From assembly GCF_001677475.2 (NCBI RefSeq), contig NZ_CP015229.1: a DNA stretch of 64,000 bases, one strand, 5' to 3'. Positions 15,345 to 62,958 of the stretch are shown here, one piece after another; position 1 is the first letter of the stretch, and the number at the start of each line of letters is the position of its first letter. The notes under the pieces were generated by a model, which was not told the origin of the DNA, did no database searches, and worked only from the letters and a program-made list of their open reading frames with translations. This stretch comes from Escherichia coli (lineage in GTDB: Bacteria > Pseudomonadota > Gammaproteobacteria > Enterobacterales > Enterobacteriaceae). A program made the translations under genes and the position numbers.

Positions 15345-16427
15345 TTACCCCCTGAACCCCGGCGGAATTTCGGTGTCCGGTTCAGAAATGTGGTTCACGC
15401 AACGCTGGCTGACTGCGCCAGCCTTCGGCAGCGACCACGGATTTTCGAAATTCCTGTTCGGGCCAAAAAACGTCGATGCCTGCTGAACAAATTCAGTTCC
15501 CGCTTTCCCGGTAGCCTCCAGGTATCTTGCGTAACGCCTCACGCCATCCAGCACGACATCCGGTGACACCCCTTCGCGTAATCTGGCCCTCCAGGCATTG
15601 AACGCGGATTTCTTCGGGTTTGACCCTGCCCGATGCGGATATTCACGCCAGACCCGTTCGAACACGTCAGGATAATCAACTCGTCCCGCAGACGGTCCCG
15701 GCATCGCCCGGGTTAACCCAATCGGCTTCCCGCTCATCGCGGAATCGGCTTCAGGCTGCTGCGGTTGGTGTTGTTGCTCCGGTTCGACGAGCAGCACCTG
15801 CTGCACACAACGCCCGGAATCTGCTTCCGGTGTCATGCCAGCTGGTCCTGGACGTTCAGTCAGAACGGGACAAGAATCCACCAGTGGGTCCGTGGCGATT
15901 TTTTCGCCATGGACCAGAAGGGTTTTATCTCTTTCCTGTTCCTGTTCCTGTTCCTGTTCTTGGCTTGAAAGGGGCTCTGAAGGGGCTTCAATTTTCCGAC
16001 ATGATTCACGTCTGACATCCAGGTGGAAATCATCCTTATATCTATCATAAAAGGATGATAAAAAAGGATTTTCCAGCAACGCGGAATATTCATTTCTTAC
16101 CCCAGCACAACGGTTATCGCCTGGTTTCAGCGCTTCACCAACCTGCCATGCTGCCATTTCATGCACCCATACAACCTCAGAATCATGGTCATAGCTGCAA
16201 AAACCAGCCTCGCAAGCCATTTGAAGCCCCTTAGAAGCCCCTTCAGGATCAAGTCCGGTTTCGTGAGCAATGTACAAAACAGGCAGGTAATAAAGGCCCA
16301 GCATATTGGAATGAGGCGAGGTCATCATATACAACGCCACTACCATACATTCCGGACCAGACTTCCTTAGTTTTCGCCCTGTATCGCCTAACCAGAACTG
16401 AGGTGAAATTGTTGCGTAATTACGCAT
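15345..16427 (-). CDS. Replication initiator (lambda O-like replisome organizer)
   Basis: 360-aa ORF between cII and DnaC-like gene; internal repeats and an AT-rich tract inside the coding region resemble an O-gene-embedded origin. Confidence 0.55.
   Translation of the reverse strand: MRNYATISPQFWLGDTGRKLRKSGPECMVVALYMMTSPHSNMLGLYYLPVLYIAHETGLDPEGASKGLQMACEAGFCSYDHDSEVVWVHEMAAWQVGEALKPGDNRCAGVRNEYSALLENPFLSSFYDRYKDDFHLDVRRESCRKIEAPSEPLSSQEQEQEQEQERDKTLLVHGEKIATDPLVDSCPVLTERPGPAGMTPEADSGRCVQQVLLVEPEQQHQPQQPEADSAMSGKPIGLTRAMPGPSAGRVDYPDVFERVWREYPHRAGSNPKKSAFNAWRARLREGVSPDVVLDGVRRYARYLEATGKAGTEFVQQASTFFGPNRNFENPWSLPKAGAVSQRCVNHISEPDTEIPPGFRG
15935..15958. repeat. Hexanucleotide tandem repeat (CCTGTT)x4 inside replication gene
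   Basis: Perfect four-unit repeat; encodes (EQ)n on minus strand. Confidence 0.9.
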
Positions 16428-16460
16428 AGTCCCCTCGCATACAAGATTTACTCCATACCG

Positions 16461-16610
16461 CAGACGGTCCCGGTATCTCCCGGGTTAACCCAATCGGCTT
16501 CAGGCTGCTGCGGTTGGTGTGACTGCACATTGGTGTGACTGCACATCTTCACAGACGGTCCCGGTATCTCCGGGTTAACCCAATCGGCTTCAGGCTGCTG
16601 CGGTTGGTGT
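16461..16610. repeat. Two direct copies of a ~60-bp repeat, third copy at 15689-15775 inside the replication gene; includes tandem 15-bp repeat
   Basis: cagacggtcccggtatctc(c)cgggttaacccaatcggcttcaggctgctgcggttggtgt at 16461-16520 and 16552-16610; ggtgtgactgcacat duplicated at 16516-16545. Confidence 0.85.
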
Positions 16611-28962: not shown

Positions 28963-30219
28963 ATGTTCCGCCGTCTGCTTATCGCAACAGTCGTCGGTAT
29001 TCTCGCGGCCTTTGCCGTTGCCGGGTTTCGTCATACGATGCTGCTACTGGAGTGGTTGTTCCTCAATAATGACTCGGGCAGTCTGGTCAATGCAGCTACA
29101 AATCTTTCCCCGTGGCGACGGCTGCTAACTCCGGCGCTCGGCGGACTGGCGGCGGGTTTGTTGCTGATGGGCTGGCAGAAATTTACCCAGCAACGCCCTC
29201 ATGCGCCGACCGATTACATGGAAGCGTTGCAAACCGATGGTCAGTTTGATTACGCAGCAAGCCTGGTTAAATCGCTTGCCTCTCTGCTGGTAGTAACCAG
29301 CGGCAGTGCAATAGGTCGCGAAGGTGCGATGATTCTTTTAGCTGCCCTTGCCGCCTCCTGTTTTGCCCAACGTTTTACGCCACGCCAGGAGTGGAAATTA
29401 TGGATCGCCTGTGGAGCTGCGGCGGGAATGGCTGCGGCCTATCGCGCCCCGCTTGCTGGCAGTTTATTTATAGCCGAAGTGCTGTTTGGCACTATGATGT
29501 TGGCCTCTCTCGGCCCGGTGATTATTTCCGCCGTCATGGCGTTGCTGGTTAGCAATCTTATTAATCATAGCGACGCGTTACTCTACAGCGTACAACTCTC
29601 AGTGACGGTTCAGGCTCGTGACTATGCGCTGATTATCAGTACAGGTGTGCTGGCAGGTCTGTGCGGACCACTGTTGTTAACGTTAATGAACGCCTGTCAT
29701 CGTGGATTTGTGAGCCTCAAGCTTGCGCCGCCCTGGCAACTGGCACTGGGCGGGTTGATCGTGGGTCTGCTTTCCCTGTTCACACCTGCAGTGTGGGGCA
29801 ATGGCTATAGCACCGTACAATCCTTTTTAACCGCCCCGCCACTGTTAATGATCATTGCCGGGATCTTCCTCTGTAAACTGTTTGCCGTGCTGGCGAGTAG
29901 TGGTTCTGGCGCGCCCGGTGGTGTCTTTACACCGACGCTATTTATCGGTCTTGCCATTGGCATGCTGTATGGTCGTAGCCTGGGATTATGGTTCCCTGAT
30001 GGCGAAGAAATTACGCTTTTACTCGGATTGACCGGAATGGCGACACTGTTGGCGGCGACCACGCACGCGCCGATTATGTCGACGTTGATGATATGTGAAA
30101 TGACCGGGGAGTATCAGCTACTCCCCGGTTTATTGATTGCCTGCGTAATTGCGTCGGTAATTTCGCGGACGTTACACCGTGACTCTATCTACCGCCAGCA
30201 CACTGCGCAGCATAGCTAA
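28963..30219 (+). CDS. clcB: Voltage-gated ClC-type chloride channel ClcB
   Basis: 418-aa membrane ORF with GREG and GxFxP ClC motifs. Confidence 0.85.
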
Positions 30220-30867
30220 GCGGATGTATTGCCCCAGTTCACGCTGTTCGGCGCGCGGCAGATAAGGCAGTTCACCAATGAGCGGTGCCGGAAGTTTTTT
30301 ACCCAGCACATCAATGATTTCCGCATAATGCGCCAGTCCTGGATTGATTCGGTTAGCCACCCAGCCAATGAGCGGCAGCCCGTCGTTGGCAATCGCCTGA
30401 GCTGTTAGTAGTGCATGGTTAATGCAACCTTCCTGAATACCGACAACCATCAATACCGGCAGTTGTTCCTGCACCACCCATTCAGAGAGCGGACGCAAAT
30501 CATTCATCAGACTGCGCCAGCCGCCAGTCCCTTCTACCACGACATGATCGACTTTATCGGTCAGGTTTGCCAGGCCGTTTGAAATGAGGGTGTAATTGAT
30601 TGGGCAACTGTGCGCCACGCTACTTTCTTCTTCGCTTAACGCGATAGGATTAACTGCTTCATAAGGCAGTTCGATGGTTGAAACACTCTGCAACACCAGG
30701 GCATCTTTATTACGCAGCCCTTCGGGTGTCTCTTTGCTCCCCTTCGCTACGGGTTTATATCCCGCAACCGTTTTTCCCTGGGAGGCTAACGCTTGTAGCA
30801 ATGCGCGGGAAACCACCGTTTTCCCTACAGAAGTGTCTGTACCGGTAATAAAGAAACGCTTCAGCAT
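30172..30867 (-). CDS. ynfK: Dethiobiotin synthetase paralog BioD2 (YnfK)
   Basis: 231-aa ORF with P-loop GTDTSVGKT; convergent overlap with clcB. Confidence 0.85.
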
Positions 30868-30991
30868 CACTAACTCCACCGTTATGCTTCACAAATATAA
30901 ACCAGGAAAATAATTAACCTTGAAAGTCTAAGTTATGCTTTCCTGGCCCAAATTGAGATAGCGCAAATTTTGGTAGAACAGTTAAAAAATG

Positions 30992-32212
30992 TTAACCCTG
31001 CAACAGACGAATCAACAAAGAACCGTTATACATCGCGTCTTTTACCAGCGCAGCCCCTGCCATCGTACCCTGGTTAGAAAACTGAGTACTCTCAACGCTA
31101 ATGTGCTGACTATACGCAGGAAGGGCCTGCTGACGGATGCTGTCCGAGATGACCGGGAAGAGGATATCTGCCGCTTTACTTAACGGTGAGCCAATCAGTA
31201 TTTTTTGCGGGTTAAATAAATTCACCATGATGGCAAGAATGCGACCGACATGCGCGCCTACCCCGGTAATGATGTCTTTTGCCAGTAGATCGCCGCGCAA
31301 TGCCGCCTGACACAATGAGTCCACGGTTAACGGTTGTCCATGTAACATCGAGCTCATGGATTGATTGAGACGCAGCTGTGCCAGCTCAAGAATACTGTCC
31401 ACACTGGCGATGGTTTCGAGGCAACCGTGATTCCCGCAATAACAGCGTTTCCCATACGGGTCAACCTGTGTGTGGCCTATTTCCACGAGGCTACTGCTGC
31501 CTGCGTGTAGCAGATGACCATCGGTAATGACGCCCGCCCCCACGTTGTGATCGATAACCACCTGAATCACATCGCGCGCCCCGCGTGAGGCACCAAACAA
31601 GGCCTCTGCCATCGTCCATGCGCTGATATCATGCTGGATATAAACCGGTACGCCGGTATGCTGCTCCAGCGCCTCGCCGAGCGGCATCTCTTTTACATCC
31701 TCGTAGAACGGCATGCGATGTACAATGCCATTTTCCGTATCAATAATTCCCGGCAAGGTTATGGCAATCGAAGTTAGACGCTCAAGTTTTTTCTGGTGGC
31801 GGATAAAAAACTGATCGATATGGGAAATAATACGATCCAGCAATGGTGAGTCATCTTTTAACGCCAGTTCCTGCGCCTCCTCCACCACCAGTTTGCTGCT
31901 CAGATCGCGCAGAGCAAGGAAAATCTCCCCGCGACTAATGCGCAGAGAAAGATAGTGCCAGGCTTCAGTTTCAACCACCAGCCCCACCGCCGGACGGCCA
32001 CGGTTCCCCGCTTCTTTGATTTCCAGCTCTTGCACCAGGTGTGCTTCGAGCATCTCACGGACAATTTTAGTGATACTGGCAGGAGCCAGTTGCGCCAGAC
32101 GGGAAAGATCGATACGCGAGACTGGACCAAGCTGATCAATCAGGCGATATACCGCGCCCGCGTTGGTCTGCTTTATTTGATCAATGTGCCCAGGCTGGTT
32201 TTCAGCAACCAC
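30992..32212 (-). CDS. mlc: Mlc (DgsA) ROK-family global regulator
   Basis: 406-aa ORF MVAENQPGHIDQIKQTNAGAVYRLIDQLGPVSRIDLSR. Confidence 0.9.
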   Translation of the reverse strand: MVAENQPGHIDQIKQTNAGAVYRLIDQLGPVSRIDLSRLAQLAPASITKIVREMLEAHLVQELEIKEAGNRGRPAVGLVVETEAWHYLSLRISRGEIFLALRDLSSKLVVEEAQELALKDDSPLLDRIISHIDQFFIRHQKKLERLTSIAITLPGIIDTENGIVHRMPFYEDVKEMPLGEALEQHTGVPVYIQHDISAWTMAEALFGASRGARDVIQVVIDHNVGAGVITDGHLLHAGSSSLVEIGHTQVDPYGKRCYCGNHGCLETIASVDSILELAQLRLNQSMSSMLHGQPLTVDSLCQAALRGDLLAKDIITGVGAHVGRILAIMVNLFNPQKILIGSPLSKAADILFPVISDSIRQQALPAYSQHISVESTQFSNQGTMAGAALVKDAMYNGSLLIRLLQG

Positions 32213-32346
32213 CGCATACTCCCTATATTTTCGCGCTCCGAAATAATCTGTAGGCTATGGTGAAGCACTTCAATACGTGTCGTCAAATTTTTACTTAGGC
32301 ATGTGATTAACAGCACATTTTTCGGGCTTTTTCGCTGAAATTTCCC

Positions 32347-33240
32347 TCACCTGAGAGCATTCAGCAGATGAATACGAAAGTTTCGCGCAGCTGGACTTTG
32401 TTCATGATGTTTCGGCCAGACCAACCACATTTCAGAAACCGCATCCTCTTCAGCAATCGGCACCCAGCGCATTTCGTTGAGCTGAACACGTTTAAATGAC
32501 GCAGGCAAAATTGAAACACCCAGACCGGCGGAAACCAGACCGATGATGGTCATAGCCTCACCCACCTCCTGAGTGATGACGGGCGTCAAATGGTAACGTC
32601 GCATCAGTCCGAGAATATCGTCATACAGCCCTGTCCCTACGTGCGGATCAAAAAAGACAAAGGGTTCTTTCGCCAGTTCAGCCAGCGTTACATTCGGGTT
32701 ATTTGCCAGGGGATGATCGTGCGGGATCATCGCCATAAGCGGTTCATGGACGATGACTGCGTGTTCAAGCGTCTCCGGTAACGCTGTGTTACGCAGCAAT
32801 CCCATATCCAGCGTTCCTTCAATGAGCGGGGCGATTTGCTCGCGAGTGTTCATTTCGCGGGTTTGTAAATGGACATCAGGATAATCACGGCGAAACAGCG
32901 ATAACGTATCAGACACCGCCCGAATAAAAGGAGCGGACGAAGTAAAACCAATACGCAACTCCCCCGCTTCACCCTGATGCAGTCTTTCCGCTCGAGCGGC
33001 AGCGTCATCCACCATAGACAGGATTTGCCGACTATCTGCAAGAAACTGTTTTCCTGCTGCTGTCAGCAATACACTGCGATTGGTTCGTGCCAGCAGTCGG
33101 GCACCAATTTGTTGCTCCAGCGCTTGAATCTGCTGACTTAGCGGCGGTTGCGAAATATTCAGGCGGGCAGCGGCGCGCCCGAAATGCAGCTCTTCCGCAA
33201 CAGCAACAAAGTAACGCAGATGACGAAGTTCAATATTCAT
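32347..33240 (-). CDS. ynfL: LysR-type transcriptional regulator YnfL
   Basis: 297-aa ORF with N-terminal LysR HTH; divergent from ynfM. Confidence 0.85.
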   Translation of the reverse strand: MNIELRHLRYFVAVAEELHFGRAAARLNISQPPLSQQIQALEQQIGARLLARTNRSVLLTAAGKQFLADSRQILSMVDDAAARAERLHQGEAGELRIGFTSSAPFIRAVSDTLSLFRRDYPDVHLQTREMNTREQIAPLIEGTLDMGLLRNTALPETLEHAVIVHEPLMAMIPHDHPLANNPNVTLAELAKEPFVFFDPHVGTGLYDDILGLMRRYHLTPVITQEVGEAMTIIGLVSAGLGVSILPASFKRVQLNEMRWVPIAEEDAVSEMWLVWPKHHEQSPAARNFRIHLLNALR

Positions 33241-33346
33241 ATTTAAAACATCTTATTTGAGATTATTAATATATTAGACAGAACAATTCGATTTTCCTAC
33301 CCTATGTATAAGCCTGATCCACAGGCATATTTAGCAAGGATTTCAA

Positions 33347-34600
33347 GTGAGCCGTACTACAACTGTTGATGGCGCTCCGGCAAGCGACACTGACAAGCAA
33401 AGCATTTCTCAGCCAAATCAATTTATTAAACGCGGTACGCCGCAATTTATGCGCGTCACCCTGGCGCTGTTCTCTGCCGGACTGGCAACCTTTGCACTTC
33501 TCTATTGTGTGCAGCCTATCCTTCCGGTGCTTTCGCAGGAGTTTGGCTTAACGCCCGCGAACAGTAGTATTTCACTGTCCATTTCCACGGCGATGTTGGC
33601 TATCGGTTTGCTGTTTACTGGCCCGCTATCCGATGCCATTGGGCGCAAACCAGTGATGGTAACGGCGCTACTGTTGGCCTCCATTTGTACGTTACTTTCG
33701 ACAATGATGACCAGCTGGCACGGCATTTTGATTATGCGCGCCTTGATTGGGCTTTCGTTAAGTGGCGTGGCTGCTGTTGGCATGACTTATCTTAGCGAGG
33801 AAATCCACCCCAGTTTCGTGGCCTTTTCGATGGGGTTGTATATCAGCGGCAACTCAATTGGCGGCATGAGCGGACGCTTAATTAGTGGTGTCTTCACGGA
33901 CTTTTTCAACTGGCGAATTGCTCTGGCGGCAATCGGTTGTTTCGCGCTAGCCTCGGCGTTGATGTTCTGGAAAATCCTCCCGGAATCACGCCATTTTCGC
34001 CCGACTTCGCTGAGACCTAAGACGTTGTTTATCAACTTTCGTCTGCACTGGCGTGACCGGGGATTACCGTTATTGTTCGCAGAAGGCTTTTTGCTGATGG
34101 GGTCGTTCGTCACGCTGTTTAATTACATCGGCTATCGGTTGATGCTCTCCCCCTGGCATGTCAGTCAGGCCGTGGTTGGCTTATTATCGCTGGCCTATTT
34201 GACCGGTACATGGAGCTCACCCAAAGCCGGAACCATGACCACCCGCTATGGGCGCGGTCCAGTGATGTTGTTTTCGACGGGGGTTATGCTGTTTGGTTTA
34301 CTGATGACCTTATTTAGCTCGCTGTGGCTGATCTTTGCCGGAATGTTACTCTTCTCAGCCGGGTTCTTCGCAGCCCACTCAGTAGCCAGCAGCTGGATCG
34401 GCCCCCGCGCAAAACGCGCTAAAGGCCAGGCCTCCTCGCTGTATCTGTTCAGTTACTATCTGGGGTCGAGTATTGCCGGGACGCTGGGTGGTGTTTTCTG
34501 GCATAACTATGGCTGGAACGGCGTCGGCGCATTTATTGCTCTGATGCTGGTCATTGCTCTGCTGGTCGGGACGCGTTTGCATCGTCGTCTGCACGCCTGA
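33347..34600 (+). CDS. ynfM: MFS transporter YnfM
   Basis: 417-aa 12-TM-like ORF. Confidence 0.85.
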   Translation: MSRTTTVDGAPASDTDKQSISQPNQFIKRGTPQFMRVTLALFSAGLATFALLYCVQPILPVLSQEFGLTPANSSISLSISTAMLAIGLLFTGPLSDAIGRKPVMVTALLLASICTLLSTMMTSWHGILIMRALIGLSLSGVAAVGMTYLSEEIHPSFVAFSMGLYISGNSIGGMSGRLISGVFTDFFNWRIALAAIGCFALASALMFWKILPESRHFRPTSLRPKTLFINFRLHWRDRGLPLLFAEGFLLMGSFVTLFNYIGYRLMLSPWHVSQAVVGLLSLAYLTGTWSSPKAGTMTTRYGRGPVMLFSTGVMLFGLLMTLFSSLWLIFAGMLLFSAGFFAAHSVASSWIGPRAKRAKGQASSLYLFSYYLGSSIAGTLGGVFWHNYGWNGVGAFIALMLVIALLVGTRLHRRLHA

Positions 34601-35023
34601 AAAATAAGTCCGGACTGCGGTAAATACCCATCCGGACTTATTGCCTGCTCAAACCAACGTTAATAGCCATCCTAAAATAGACGAAGCGCCAGCCAATTCC
34701 CGCAGCGCATCTAGCGTCATCAGGATTATAAGTACCCAAATAAACGGATTCATTTTGCTGTGTGTCATTTATTACTGATGCGCAGTTATTCTACCGCTTT
34801 GTAAGTAGTAAAATAGTTAACCCGATCAAGACTACTATTATTGGTAGCTAAATTTCCCTTAAGTCACAATGCGTTATTATCAATGCTGTAATTTATTCAG
34901 CATTTGTACATATCGTTACACGCTGAAACCAACCACTCACGGAAGTCTGCCATTCCCAAAGATATAGTTATTTCAACGGCCCCGCAGTGGGGTTAAATGA
35001 AAAAACAAATTGAGGGTATGACA

Positions 35024-35332
35024 ATGAAAAAAGTATTAGCTCTGGTTGTTGCCGCTGCTATGGGTCTGTCTTCTGCCGCCTTTGCTGCAGAGACTGCGAC
35101 CACTCCTGCTCCGACTGCGACGACCACCAAAGCAGCGCCTGCGAAAACCACACATCATAAAAAACAGCATAAAGCAGCACCTGCCCAGAAAGCGCAGGCG
35201 GCTAAAAAGCATCATAAAAATGCGAAAGCTGAACAGAAAGCCCCTGAACAAAAAGCGCAGGCAGCGAAGAAACACGCCAGGAAACACAGCCATCAGCAAC
35301 CGACAAAACCTGCTGCACAACCCGCAGCGTAA
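35024..35332 (+). CDS. asr: Acid shock protein Asr
   Basis: Signal peptide [21 protein letters not shown] followed by low-complexity K/A/H/Q-rich repeats. Confidence 0.85.
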
Positions 35333-35424
35333 GTTTTCAACAGTAATGCTGGCGCGCCCCCTCGCGCCTGAAAATTACGGTGCTAAGCGGGTAACGTTTA
35401 GCACCGCCTTTAGCGGAGGGTAGT

Positions 35425-35508
35425 ATGGTGGGCCGTTATCGCTTTGAGTTCATTCTTATCATCCTTATTTTATGCGCACTGATTGCCGCCCGTTTTTATC
35501 TTTCCTGA
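35425..35508 (+). CDS. ydgU: Small hydrophobic protein YdgU (27 aa)
   Basis: ATG preceded by GGAGGG; MVGRYRFEFILIILILCALIAARFYLS; conserved position between asr and ydgD. Confidence 0.6.
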   Translation: MVGRYRFEFILIILILCALIAARFYLS

Positions 35509-35607
35509 TCGTAGTTATCTGATTTTACTCCCACTTTCATCCCGTCCCGTCTATAGTATTTATGAGGGTTTGCTTTTAATAATCATAATTACCCACCAGA
35601 GTGTGAT

Positions 35608-36429
35608 ATGCGTACAACCATTGCTGTAGTGTTGGGTGCAATTAGTTTGACGTCTGCTTTTGTGTTTGCAGATAAACCAGACGTTGCCAAATCGGCAAAC
35701 GATGAGGTCAGCACCCTGTTTTTTGGTCATGATGATCGTGTGCCAGTGAATGACACGACCCAATCACCGTGGGATGCGGTTGGGCAACTGGAAACGGCCA
35801 GCGGCAATTTATGTACGGCGACGCTGATTGCACCCAATCTGGCATTAACAGCAGGACACTGTTTATTGACGCCGCCTAAGGGTAAAGCCGATAAAGCGGT
35901 GGCGCTGCGTTTTGTGTCAAATAAAGGTCTTTGGCGCTATGAGATCCACGACATAGAAGGCCGCGTTGATCCGACACTGGGAAAGCGGTTAAAAGCAGAT
36001 GGGGATGGTTGGATTGTTCCTCCCGCAGCTGCGCCGTGGGACTTCGGTTTGATTGTGCTACGTAATCCCCCTTCTGGCATTACACCGTTGCCGTTATTTG
36101 AGGGAGATAAAGCCGCGCTTACCGCCGCATTAAAATCGGCTGGTCGTAAAGTCACTCAGGCGGGATACCCAGAAGATCATCTCGATACGTTGTACAGTCA
36201 TCAAAACTGTGAAGTGACTGGCTGGGCGCAAACGTCGGTAATGTCACATCAGTGCGATACCTTGCCGGGTGACAGCGGTTCGCCTCTGATGTTGCATACC
36301 GATAACGGCTGGCAATTAATTGGGGTACAAAGTTCGGCTCCTGCTGCGAAAGATCGCTGGCGCGCCGATAATCGGGCCATTTCTGTTACCGGTTTTCGTG
36401 ACAAGCTGGATCAACTGTCACAAAAATAA
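35608..36429 (+). CDS. ydgD: Trypsin-like serine peptidase YdgD
   Basis: Signal peptide plus catalytic motifs TAGHC and GDSGSP. Confidence 0.85.
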
Positions 36430-57801: not shown

Positions 57802-61034
<3,233 letters not shown>

Positions 61035-61203
61035 TTAACCAATTCTGTGTTGCACACAGTTATCTGTGAGAAACCCATGGAAGAGAAATGGAAATAAAAA
61101 GAACTGACACCGCGATCAAAAAACCAAAAACTGCAATACCCACAGCGTGATATAGATCGCATTAATCTTTCAAACAGCGTTGACAGAAGCCATAAAATAA
61201 GCA

Positions 61204-61219
61204 ATCGAACGTTCGTTCG
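61204..61219. promoter_or_regulatory. Candidate UidR operator in uidA promoter region
   Basis: TCGAACGTTCGTTCGA with perfect 10-bp palindrome CGAACGTTCG, between uidR and uidA. Confidence 0.3.
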
Positions 61220-61371
61220 AGCGTCTTGAGAACGATAAACTCTCATGACATATGGCTACGGTGAATATTTTTGGGGGAATTCTCCGATCCCGGGGAGATT
61301 GTATTTTGTACAGGGAAATTAAAGTATGAAACGCGGGCTCAGTTGTCACCAGCCCGCGGAAAGAGAGAGGA

Positions 61372-61962
61372 TCAGGATGCGGTTAAGATACCGCCAATCA
61401 TCGCGCGTAATCCCTGAGCAAACGACGCTTCACGCGCCAGATCTTCCGCTTCGATATCGGCCAGTACACCGTAGGTCAGATCCAGCAGTAAACGTGAAGT
61501 CATTGCCGTGTTGATGTCTGGGCTTATCTCGCCTTTTTGCTGGGCATCACGCATCCGCTGGGCAACAAATTCCGTGATCGTCATATGCTTATTTTTAAGC
61601 ATGGCGGCGACCTGTGGGTTACGCATCCCTTCCGCCATAATTTCGACCACCAACGCCCGTTGTCCAAAGGCTTCATGGGTGAGAGAGACAATAGACTCGA
61701 CCATATAGTCAACGAAATGAATCCCTTCAATCGGTTCCCGGAAACGGGCCAGCGCCCTCTCCTGGTCCTGTAAGATAATCGCCTGAATCAGGGCTTCTTT
61801 GGAGATGAAATGGTGATAGAGCGTCCCGGGACTAATGGCGCAAGATTTACAGATGGCTTTCATCGAGGCACTGTGAAATCCATTTTCTGAAAAAATCTCT
61901 CTGGCAGCATTGAGGATCCGGGTCCGTGTCGGTTGTGCTTCAGTCTGCATGTTATCCATCAT
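61372..61962 (-). CDS. uidR: TetR-family repressor UidR
   Basis: 196-aa ORF with N-terminal TetR HTH (RTRILNAAREIFSENGFHSASMKAICKSCAISPGTLYHHF). Confidence 0.9.
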   Translation of the reverse strand: MMDNMQTEAQPTRTRILNAAREIFSENGFHSASMKAICKSCAISPGTLYHHFISKEALIQAIILQDQERALARFREPIEGIHFVDYMVESIVSLTHEAFGQRALVVEIMAEGMRNPQVAAMLKNKHMTITEFVAQRMRDAQQKGEISPDINTAMTSRLLLDLTYGVLADIEAEDLAREASFAQGLRAMIGGILTAS

Positions 61963-62190
61963 AAAACCATTATAGTTAGCGTGAATAACTAGTTTACCGC
62001 GTTGTCAGGTGAGCGCCTATCATTGCTGTTGAATAGTGCGAAGGCACACTCTATTCGTATACTTTTCACCCAGCAATTGGTTAACCAATAGCCGTGATTT
62101 GGCTGCCAGTTGTTTCGCAGAGACGTTGATGAATTGCACACGCTATCCCGGTAAACAACACATACGGCTGTTTACCGGTTCGTTAGTGTA

Positions 62191-62958
62191 TTAATTCAGC
62201 TCCTGTACCCCACCACCGGAGACGGTGAGAATTTGTCCGCTTACCCAGCTGGCTGCAGGCGAGCAAAGGAACAGCGCCGCGTTAGCAATATCTTGCGGTT
62301 GGCCCAGACGTCTGATCGGCGTGTGCTGTAACATTTTTTGTTCAATTTCTGGTGTAATAACGGATTTCAAGGCATCGGTTAATATTGCCCCCGGCGCAAT
62401 GCCATTCACCCGAATATTTTTTTCACCCAGGTCAAACGCCATATTTCTGACCAGATGACTGGCCGCAGCTTTAGATGATGCATAAGAAGTCATGTTTATA
62501 TTTTTATTTTCTGCCGCCATAGAAGTGATGGTCAGAATAACGCCACCGCCATTTTTTTCCATTTCTGGCGCAACAAGTTGTGACAGATGGAAAAAAGAAA
62601 ACACATTCAGTTCATAAGCACGGCGAAAATCTGCCATTGGCATATCAAACGGTTTAGGACCACCGCCACCGGCGTTGTTAACCAGGATATCAACTTTACC
62701 CAGCTTACTGACGGCAAAGTCTGCCAGTGCAGAGAGTTCCTGTTCGGAAGTAATATCACAACGGCAGGCAAATGCCTGACCACCCAGTTGTTGAATTTCA
62801 TCTACAACATGGTTAGCTGCGTCGGCGTTAATATCACTGACCACCACAGATGCGCCAGCTGTCGCGAATGTAATGGCAATTTCTTTACCAATACCTGCAC
62901 CGGCACCTGTGATGATGGCACATTTTCCGTCGAGTCTCAGGTTGTCAGAATTAAACAC
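62191..62958 (-). CDS. hdhA: 7-alpha-hydroxysteroid dehydrogenase (SDR)
   Basis: 255-aa ORF with TGAGAGIG Rossmann motif and YxxxK. Confidence 0.9.
   Translation of the reverse strand: MFNSDNLRLDGKCAIITGAGAGIGKEIAITFATAGASVVVSDINADAANHVVDEIQQLGGQAFACRCDITSEQELSALADFAVSKLGKVDILVNNAGGGGPKPFDMPMADFRRAYELNVFSFFHLSQLVAPEMEKNGGGVILTITSMAAENKNINMTSYASSKAAASHLVRNMAFDLGEKNIRVNGIAPGAILTDALKSVITPEIEQKMLQHTPIRRLGQPQDIANAALFLCSPAASWVSGQILTVSGGGVQELN

Follow-up and report, generated by a model that had tools for sequence, protein, structure and literature searches.

The window, which is the whole 64,000-nucleotide stretch of Escherichia coli contig NZ_CP015229.1 (assembly GCF_001677475.2) that we analyzed, carries the repressor gene uidR, two genes of the gus (uid) operon, and the neighboring gene hdhA, all on the minus strand:

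62958-62191, minus strand: hdhA, neighbor gene
61372-61962, minus strand: uidR (gusR), TetR-family glucuronide repressor of 196 amino acids (Pfam TetR_N and TetR_C_11; PDB 6AYI)
61332-61358, minus strand: probable intrinsic terminator of uidR, a hairpin followed by a U-rich tail (-18.7 kcal/mol, z = -4.0)
59172-60983, minus strand: uidA (gusA), beta-glucuronidase of 603 amino acids, the regulated gene (RefSeq annotation under the matches)
57802-59175, minus strand: uidB (gusB), glucuronide transporter, second gene of the operon (MFS_2 orthologue 3' of gusA in related loci)

The UidR protein matched PDB entry 6AYI, “HTH-type transcriptional regulator UidR,” with E = 3.6e-125, and the RefSeq names under the nucleotide matches were uidR, uidA, and hdhA in 5,419 of 5,426 complete E. 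coli genomes. The hairpin at 61332-61358 (GCGGGCU...AGCCCGC followed by UUUCAUACUUUAAUUU) was missed by a simple terminator scan and is kept among the gusA-bearing Escherichia sequences; it is likely the uidR terminator. Rfam gave no match in 60900-62250 at E <= 1. The best identity among the 5,426 complete E. coli genomes was 98.2% for positions 60900-62200 and 98.8% for positions 30000-36000. As none reached at least 99%, we conclude that the window comes from an Escherichia lineage that is poorly represented among these genomes.

The 388-bp spacer between uidR (61962-61372) and uidA (60983-59172) contains the palindrome of interest, which can be described at three nested levels:

61205-61220: 16-mer TCGAACGTTCGTTCGA, containing the perfect 10-bp palindrome
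61206-61215, no strand assigned: perfect 10-bp palindrome CGAACGTTCG, core of the proposed operator
61202-61220, minus strand: 19-nt conserved footprint TCGAACGAACGTTCGATTG, proposed GusR/UidR operator O1 (position weight matrix [PWM] and conservation across nine genera)

The initial annotation had reported a perfect 10-bp palindrome at 61204-61219, between uidR and the start of uidA. Both the palindrome and its intergenic location were confirmed, but the coordinates were one base off: 61204-61219 reads ATCGAACGTTCGTTCG, and the quoted 16-mer sits one base to the right (plus-strand context, agcaaTCGAACGTTCGTTCGAgcg). From the center of the palindrome, the uidA ATG is ∼230 bp downstream and the uidR stop codon ∼160 bp upstream. 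A second reading of the 16-mer is as a 7-2-7 inverted repeat, TCGAACG-tt-CGTTCGA. Palindromy by itself is at chance level under either reading. The window contains 51 perfect 10-bp palindromes, compared with 70 ± 9 expected from Markov-1 simulations, and 5 7-2-7 inverted repeats, compared with 4.5 expected; the pattern with at most one mismatch occurs twice, with 2.1 matches expected. The case for function must therefore come from position and conservation only. Elsewhere in the window, at 15686-16610, direct repeats of 41 to 49 nt are spaced 772 and 90 nt apart; two 41-nt copies are identical, and every repeat has the palindrome GGGTTAACCC within it. A 16-nt tandem duplication is present at 16514-16545, and the repeats are probably internal repeats of a coding sequence.

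Spacer sequences of the window, K-12, five diverse E. coli genomes, and Escherichia whittamii were aligned, and the variable columns were counted:

61221-61371, uidR stop to the site: 76 of 151 columns variable
61202-61220, 19-mer: 2 of 19 columns variable
60984-61201, site to the uidA ATG: 15 of 218 columns variable

The site marks the upstream edge of a conserved regulatory region. The 16-mer is intact or changed at one position throughout this alignment, reading TCGAACGAACGTTCGG in K-12 and O157:H7 and TCGAATGAACGTTCGA in strain M70. A 32-nt query around the site was found as a single copy in 5,416 of the 5,426 E. coli genomes, with 872 identical matches, 3,574 at 95 to 99% identity (one mismatch in the sampled rows), and 970 at 90 to 95%. 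In E. coli O157:H7 Z1826, uidA is annotated as a frameshifted pseudogene, and both the operator (TCGAACGAACGTTCGG) and uidR are intact. A contig scan with the UidR protein alone recovered three Escherichia loci, two of them without the uidA region. Escherichia sp. MOD1-EC7003 and E. coli SCPM-O-B-8794 have kept uidR, and the DNA downstream of it has been lost or replaced, with no uidA 3' of uidR in the aligned stretch. The operator is cut off after GCTAGAGCGAAC in MOD1-EC7003 and is absent from SCPM-O-B-8794.

To extend the comparison beyond Escherichia, GusR orthologues were found by protein search, and their loci were fetched with genomic context. These came from Enterobacter hormaechei, Salmonella enterica, Cedecea, Yersinia, Buttiauxella, Pantoea, Erwinia, and Mixta, and the encoded proteins are 47 to 63% identical to the window protein in alignment. 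In the loci of each of these eight genera, gusA and gusB adjoin gusR. The pattern T[CA]GAA[CT]GAAC[GA]TTCG[AG]TTG, or more compactly T[CA]GAA[CT]GAACGTTCG[AG]TTG, occurs exactly once per complete gusR-gusA locus fetched from the nine Enterobacterales genera. Its first position lies 236 to 264 bp upstream of the gusA ATG in all nine, always in the gusA sense, whether gusR is divergent or codirectional. gusR is divergent in six genera (loci L012, L013, L015, L018, L019, and L022) and codirectional in E. coli, Yersinia (L016), and Erwinia (L020). Given that distance and orientation relative to gusA stay constant despite these flips of gusR, the operator belongs to the gusA side of the module. In the nine-genus alignment, the block at 61202-61220 forms the most conserved 19 columns of the spacer, at 0.94, compared with 0.71 for the next best block and a mean of 0.57. 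The 13-nt degenerate core has 19 occurrences in the 177 kb compared, all of them orthologous, and by arithmetic ∼0.02 chance matches are expected on both strands. A PWM built from the nine genera scored the window site at 34.0; the runner-up, at 13.1, was the same site on the other strand.

The inner 8 bp of the palindrome (GAACGTTC) are unchanged in eight of the nine genera, with one change in Mixta, and the full 10 bp are unchanged in five. In the same orthologues, the GusR helix-turn-helix and recognition helix, SPGTLYHHF.SKEAL (within ..SMK.ICK....SPGTLYHHF.SKEAL..), is invariant or nearly so. A near-invariant DNA-reading head therefore matches an invariant operator core, and the operator is co-conserved with the GusR orthologues that bear this head. 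Two gus loci of Enterobacter hormaechei have transposases of IS1, IS66, and IS240 and the reverse transcriptase of a group II intron on their flanks; on CP070545.1 (269 kb), plasmid-type genes, which encode a ParM-like ALP_N protein, an H-NS-like protein, and FlhC, also flank the locus. In these loci, the operon appears to reside on mobile or plasmid DNA.

Numbered from 61220 toward uidA, the footprint reads T1 M2 G3 A4 A5 Y6 G7 A8 A9 C10 G11 T12 T13 C14 G15 R16 T17 T18 G19. Written around its axis, the operator is TCGAACGAAC/GTTCGATTGa, with the perfect 10-bp core at the center and the axis, between positions 10 and 11 (61211 and 61210 in the window), marked by the slash. The pairs from 10-11 out to 6-15 all match. 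Farther out on the same axis, A4-T17 and C2-G19 match, and T1-A20 matches in six genera. Pantoea and Erwinia have 8 of 10 dyad pairs matching over 20 bp; for the window, the count is 7 of 9. These pairings support the view that the palindrome is the core of a pseudo-palindromic operator with a probable extent of ∼20 bp and a probable axis at 10/11. The axis of the 7-2-7 reading is less favored, as it does not account for the invariant TTG at the flank and loses its outer pair or pairs in four genera. Pseudo-palindromes of ∼20 bp are typical of TetR-family operators, and the size of the dyad would suit a TetR-family dimer.

Among the Salmonella loci, one (L021) has a codirectional gusR-like gene whose product (P0083) is 57% identical to the usual Salmonella GusR (L013). 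The operator position in L021 is occupied by TAGATCGAACGGTTGATCG, which has 15 of 19 bases as in the canonical site and differs at the other 4. The gusA-upstream DNA of L021 (4380-4615) is 98% identical to that of L013 from GC(C/T)ATATGTCAACGG onward, and the homology ends just before the operator. Because the homology begins just downstream of the operator, we place a recombination breakpoint at the operator itself. Regulator and site have thus changed together and the rest of the module has not, which links the site with GusR and not with some other factor.

The gus system has been studied in some depth. GusR is a ligand-released repressor of TetR fold with known structures (PDB 6AYI and 6AYH), and the operon is induced by glucuronides, which relieve GusR repression. 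According to Pellegrino et al. (2023; PMC9881133), GusR has two operator sites, O1 and O2, both upstream of the gusA promoter, as their schematic also shows. They report that the uidR-uidA spacer alone gives a reporter glucuronide-inducible expression and that the operon is subject to catabolite repression. Their deletion “to remove O1 site” (Op-delta plasmid, primers DE6279 and DE6280, Table S3) abolished the pNPG/GusR response. Direct binding of purified GusR to O1, reversed by glucuronide, is attributed there to Little et al. (2018). The primer halves map to 61320-61339 and 61139-61160 in the window, which defines the deleted segment:

61161-61319, minus strand: segment equal to the published O1 deletion, 159 bp

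By our mapping, which has a resolution of 159 bp rather than of a single site, the palindrome lies inside this segment. It is the only conserved dyad there; the other conserved element of the segment, GTCAA, is not a dyad. Cross-genus conservation and inclusion in the published deletion support the initial suggestion that the palindrome serves as an operator of UidR. The further suggestion that it is one half of that operator gives way to a core of a ∼19- to 20-bp pseudo-palindrome. Likewise, the site is inside the regulatory spacer, as had been proposed, but on the published schematic it is upstream of the UidR-controlled promoter and not part of it. A PWM scan of the uidR-uidA and hdhA-uidR spacers detected no second GusR-like site that could correspond to O2, whereas the literature draws two GusR sites. 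Full-text literature searches with the operator sequence in both orientations, and with GAACGTTCG together with “glucuronid,” returned no match.

Downstream of the proposed operator, the spacer contains a series of further conserved or recognizable elements:

61180-61184, minus strand: conserved GTCAA block, identical and at identical spacing in all aligned sequences
61146-61161, minus strand: CRP-like box TGCGATCTATATCACG (compare TGTGA-N6-TCACA), conserved in position and tentatively assigned to CRP by its textbook consensus
61115-61120, minus strand: TTTGAT, which is TATGAT in several other genera, a candidate -10 element whose distance from the CRP-like box is fixed
61030-61044, minus strand: uidA-proximal UxuR/ExuR-type box AATTGGTTAACTAAT (TGGT-nn-ACyA), a motif match
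61008-61023, minus strand: second UxuR/ExuR-type box AAAGGTTGACCAGTAT, just upstream of the Shine-Dalgarno sequence

In all nine genera, TTG directly follows the operator, with a gap of 17 nt between TTGnnn and the final AA of GTCAA (61180-61204, minus strand). Five blocks downstream of the operator are common to the genera at fixed spacing (GTCAA, the CRP-like box, TTGCA(A/G), TTTTaTGATC, and TCAGwwC), and GATAAC and the two UxuR-type boxes are shared at less exact spacing. The UxuR/ExuR-type boxes were assigned by the known GntR-type hexuronate-repressor motif and by published statements that UxuR corepresses uidA. The second box reads TGGTTGACCAAT in Enterobacter, Salmonella, and Cedecea and TGGTTAACC in Yersinia and Erwinia. 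A third palindrome of this type (TGGT-nn-ACCA), the near-perfect GCAATTGGTTAACCAATAGC, lies at 62073-62092, upstream of uidR, and the other genera have counterparts close to gusR and gusA, such as TTGGTCAACCAA in Cedecea. This distribution suggests that uidR and the operon may both be under hexuronate-repressor control.

Consensus scans of the window and of ten sequences from nine genera revealed no consistently placed sigma-70 promoter, and in E. coli these scans recognized none over or beside the operator. If TTTGAT/TATGAT at 61120-61115 were the -10 element, then by arithmetic the operator would be centered ∼100 bp upstream of the transcription start and the UxuR boxes would lie downstream of it. 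The CRP-like box would then be centered at -45.5, a noncanonical position for CRP. On the opposite strand, TTG and GTCAA read TTGAC(A/T)-N17-AA(T/C)CGA, and no convincing promoter was seen in either direction. In Pantoea (L019, about 2815-2850), the two elements form a perfect inverted repeat, CGATTGA-N17-TCAATCG.

We considered three other explanations for the site, together with two further known motifs. That the palindrome arose by chance, with the true operator elsewhere in the 159-bp deleted segment, would accord with the count of 51 10-bp palindromes against ∼70 expected and with the coarseness of the published deletion. Conservation effectively refutes this reading: the 19-mer is nearly invariant in nine genera at a fixed distance from gusA, its 19 core occurrences are all orthologous where ∼0.02 would be expected in 177 kb, and the uidR-side remainder of the deleted segment (61221-61319) is polymorphic in Escherichia (76 of 151 columns across 61221-61371) and unalignable between genera. 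Just as improbable is a Rho-independent terminator of uidR, formed by the stem TCGAAC/GTTCGA with UUGCUUAUUUUAU after it on the sense strand of uidR. A consensus scan did list the site as terminator-like on the minus strand, and it is downstream of uidR on the same strand. Its hairpin, however, is weak (-6.5 to -8.6 kcal/mol, z = -0.78), with 43 of 200 shuffled sequences folding at least as well, and a far better terminator follows uidR directly at 61332-61358. Moreover, the motif is equally kept where gusR is divergent and no transcription enters the site, and the T-rich tail becomes an A-run in Pantoea, Buttiauxella, and Mixta.

A somewhat less remote explanation, though one we still consider unlikely, is that the conserved site serves a factor other than GusR, either another regulator of gusA or an unrecognized promoter (TTG...GTCAAy 17 nt on, or TTGACA-N17-AATCGA on the other strand). 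Conservation is indeed asymmetric, taking in TTG beyond the palindrome and also GTCAA at its fixed spacing; the Buttiauxella and Mixta pairs TTGAAC-17-AATCAT and TTGAAC-17-AATGAT score 8/12; and the CRP-like box would by arithmetic be centered at -61.5 of the hypothetical leftward TTGACA-17-AATCGA pair. Yet most genera have -10 candidates that lack the invariant final T, and in E. coli no pair in either direction reaches 9/12. The motif is present only in gusR-bearing loci and differs where the regulator has been exchanged, its dyad is of the kind expected for a TetR-family dimer, and the literature assigns O1 in this segment to GusR. A promoter element here would also be compatible with GusR binding, as one abutting the operator would simply explain repression. 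We rejected a UxuR/ExuR operator, as the site reads CGAACGTTCG and not TGGT-nn-ACCA, and boxes of the latter kind are found at 61030-61044, 61008-61023, and 62073-62092. A CRP box was also rejected, given that the operator does not match the CRP-like box at 61146-61161.

Based on the position of the site, its extreme conservation together with GusR, and its inclusion in the published O1 deletion, we conclude that the palindrome is very probably (about 0.88) the center of O1, the high-affinity GusR/UidR operator in the gus (uid) operon. O1 itself is already known from E. coli (Blanco et al. 1985; Little et al. 2018; PMC9881133), at the same locus, in the same spacer, and with the same regulator gene, and there is nothing new in kind here. 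The K-12 O1 region has one change (TCGAACGAACGTTCGG); in the window allele, the final base of the 16-mer is A rather than G, and this difference extends the outer symmetry. Overall, the window is only ∼98 to 99% identical to the closest complete E. coli genomes, and we find no substantive difference from the known O1.

Among TetR-family systems, tetO is a 19-bp palindrome bound by one TetR dimer, and QacR IR1 spans 28 bp and is bound by two dimers. Like these operators, the gus site has a dyad of ∼20 bp and a ligand-released repressor of TetR fold encoded beside its target, and, as in tetR/tetA, six of the nine genera have the regulator gene pointing away from its target operon. Unlike tetO, which overlaps its promoters, the gus operator lies ∼230 bp upstream of the gusA ATG with no recognizable promoter over it. 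The operators of UxuR/ExuR, which are GntR-family repressors, are in the same spacer and coregulate uidA according to the literature, but they have a different motif and other coordinates.

In the mechanism that we propose, the two helix-turn-helix heads of GusR would hold the ∼20-bp pseudo-palindrome when glucuronide is absent, keeping uidABC off. Glucuronide bound in the C-terminal domain would release GusR, and the operon would be transcribed, subject to further control by catabolite regulation and by the UxuR boxes beside the uidA start. Given that there is no recognizable sigma-70 promoter near the site, simple occlusion does not explain repression. As for how a site ∼230 bp upstream of the uidA start codon could repress, our best guess is that it acts from afar on a CRP-dependent promoter farther downstream and possibly cooperates with the UxuR sites close to that promoter. 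The literature on the operon describes UxuR as a corepressor of uidA, and the title of Blanco et al. (1986) claims “cooperative regulation” by UidR and UxuR, on genetic grounds. Given this claim and the distal layout, repression would most likely work at a distance or by looping.

The operator stands at the head of a ∼240-bp module with the order operator, TTG-N17-GTCAA, CRP-like box, TTGCA(A/G), TATGAT, and two UxuR boxes; in the nine Enterobacterales genera, spacing is exact in the upstream half and order is kept throughout. A more speculative idea, for which we would give well under even odds, is that the operator anchors this module across the nine genera either through a DNA loop between GusR and UxuR or with TTG/GTCAA as an unrecognized promoter or a site for a third factor. 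If true, a GusR-UxuR loop would join an unusual heterologous pair, a TetR-family and a GntR-family repressor. The gus operon is the source of the GUS reporter gene, and its control by GusR matters for the reactivation by gut microbes of glucuronidated drugs such as irinotecan (SN-38G). The consensus and its fixed distance from gusA could be used to annotate GusR-controlled gus operons and to design glucuronide-responsive switches.
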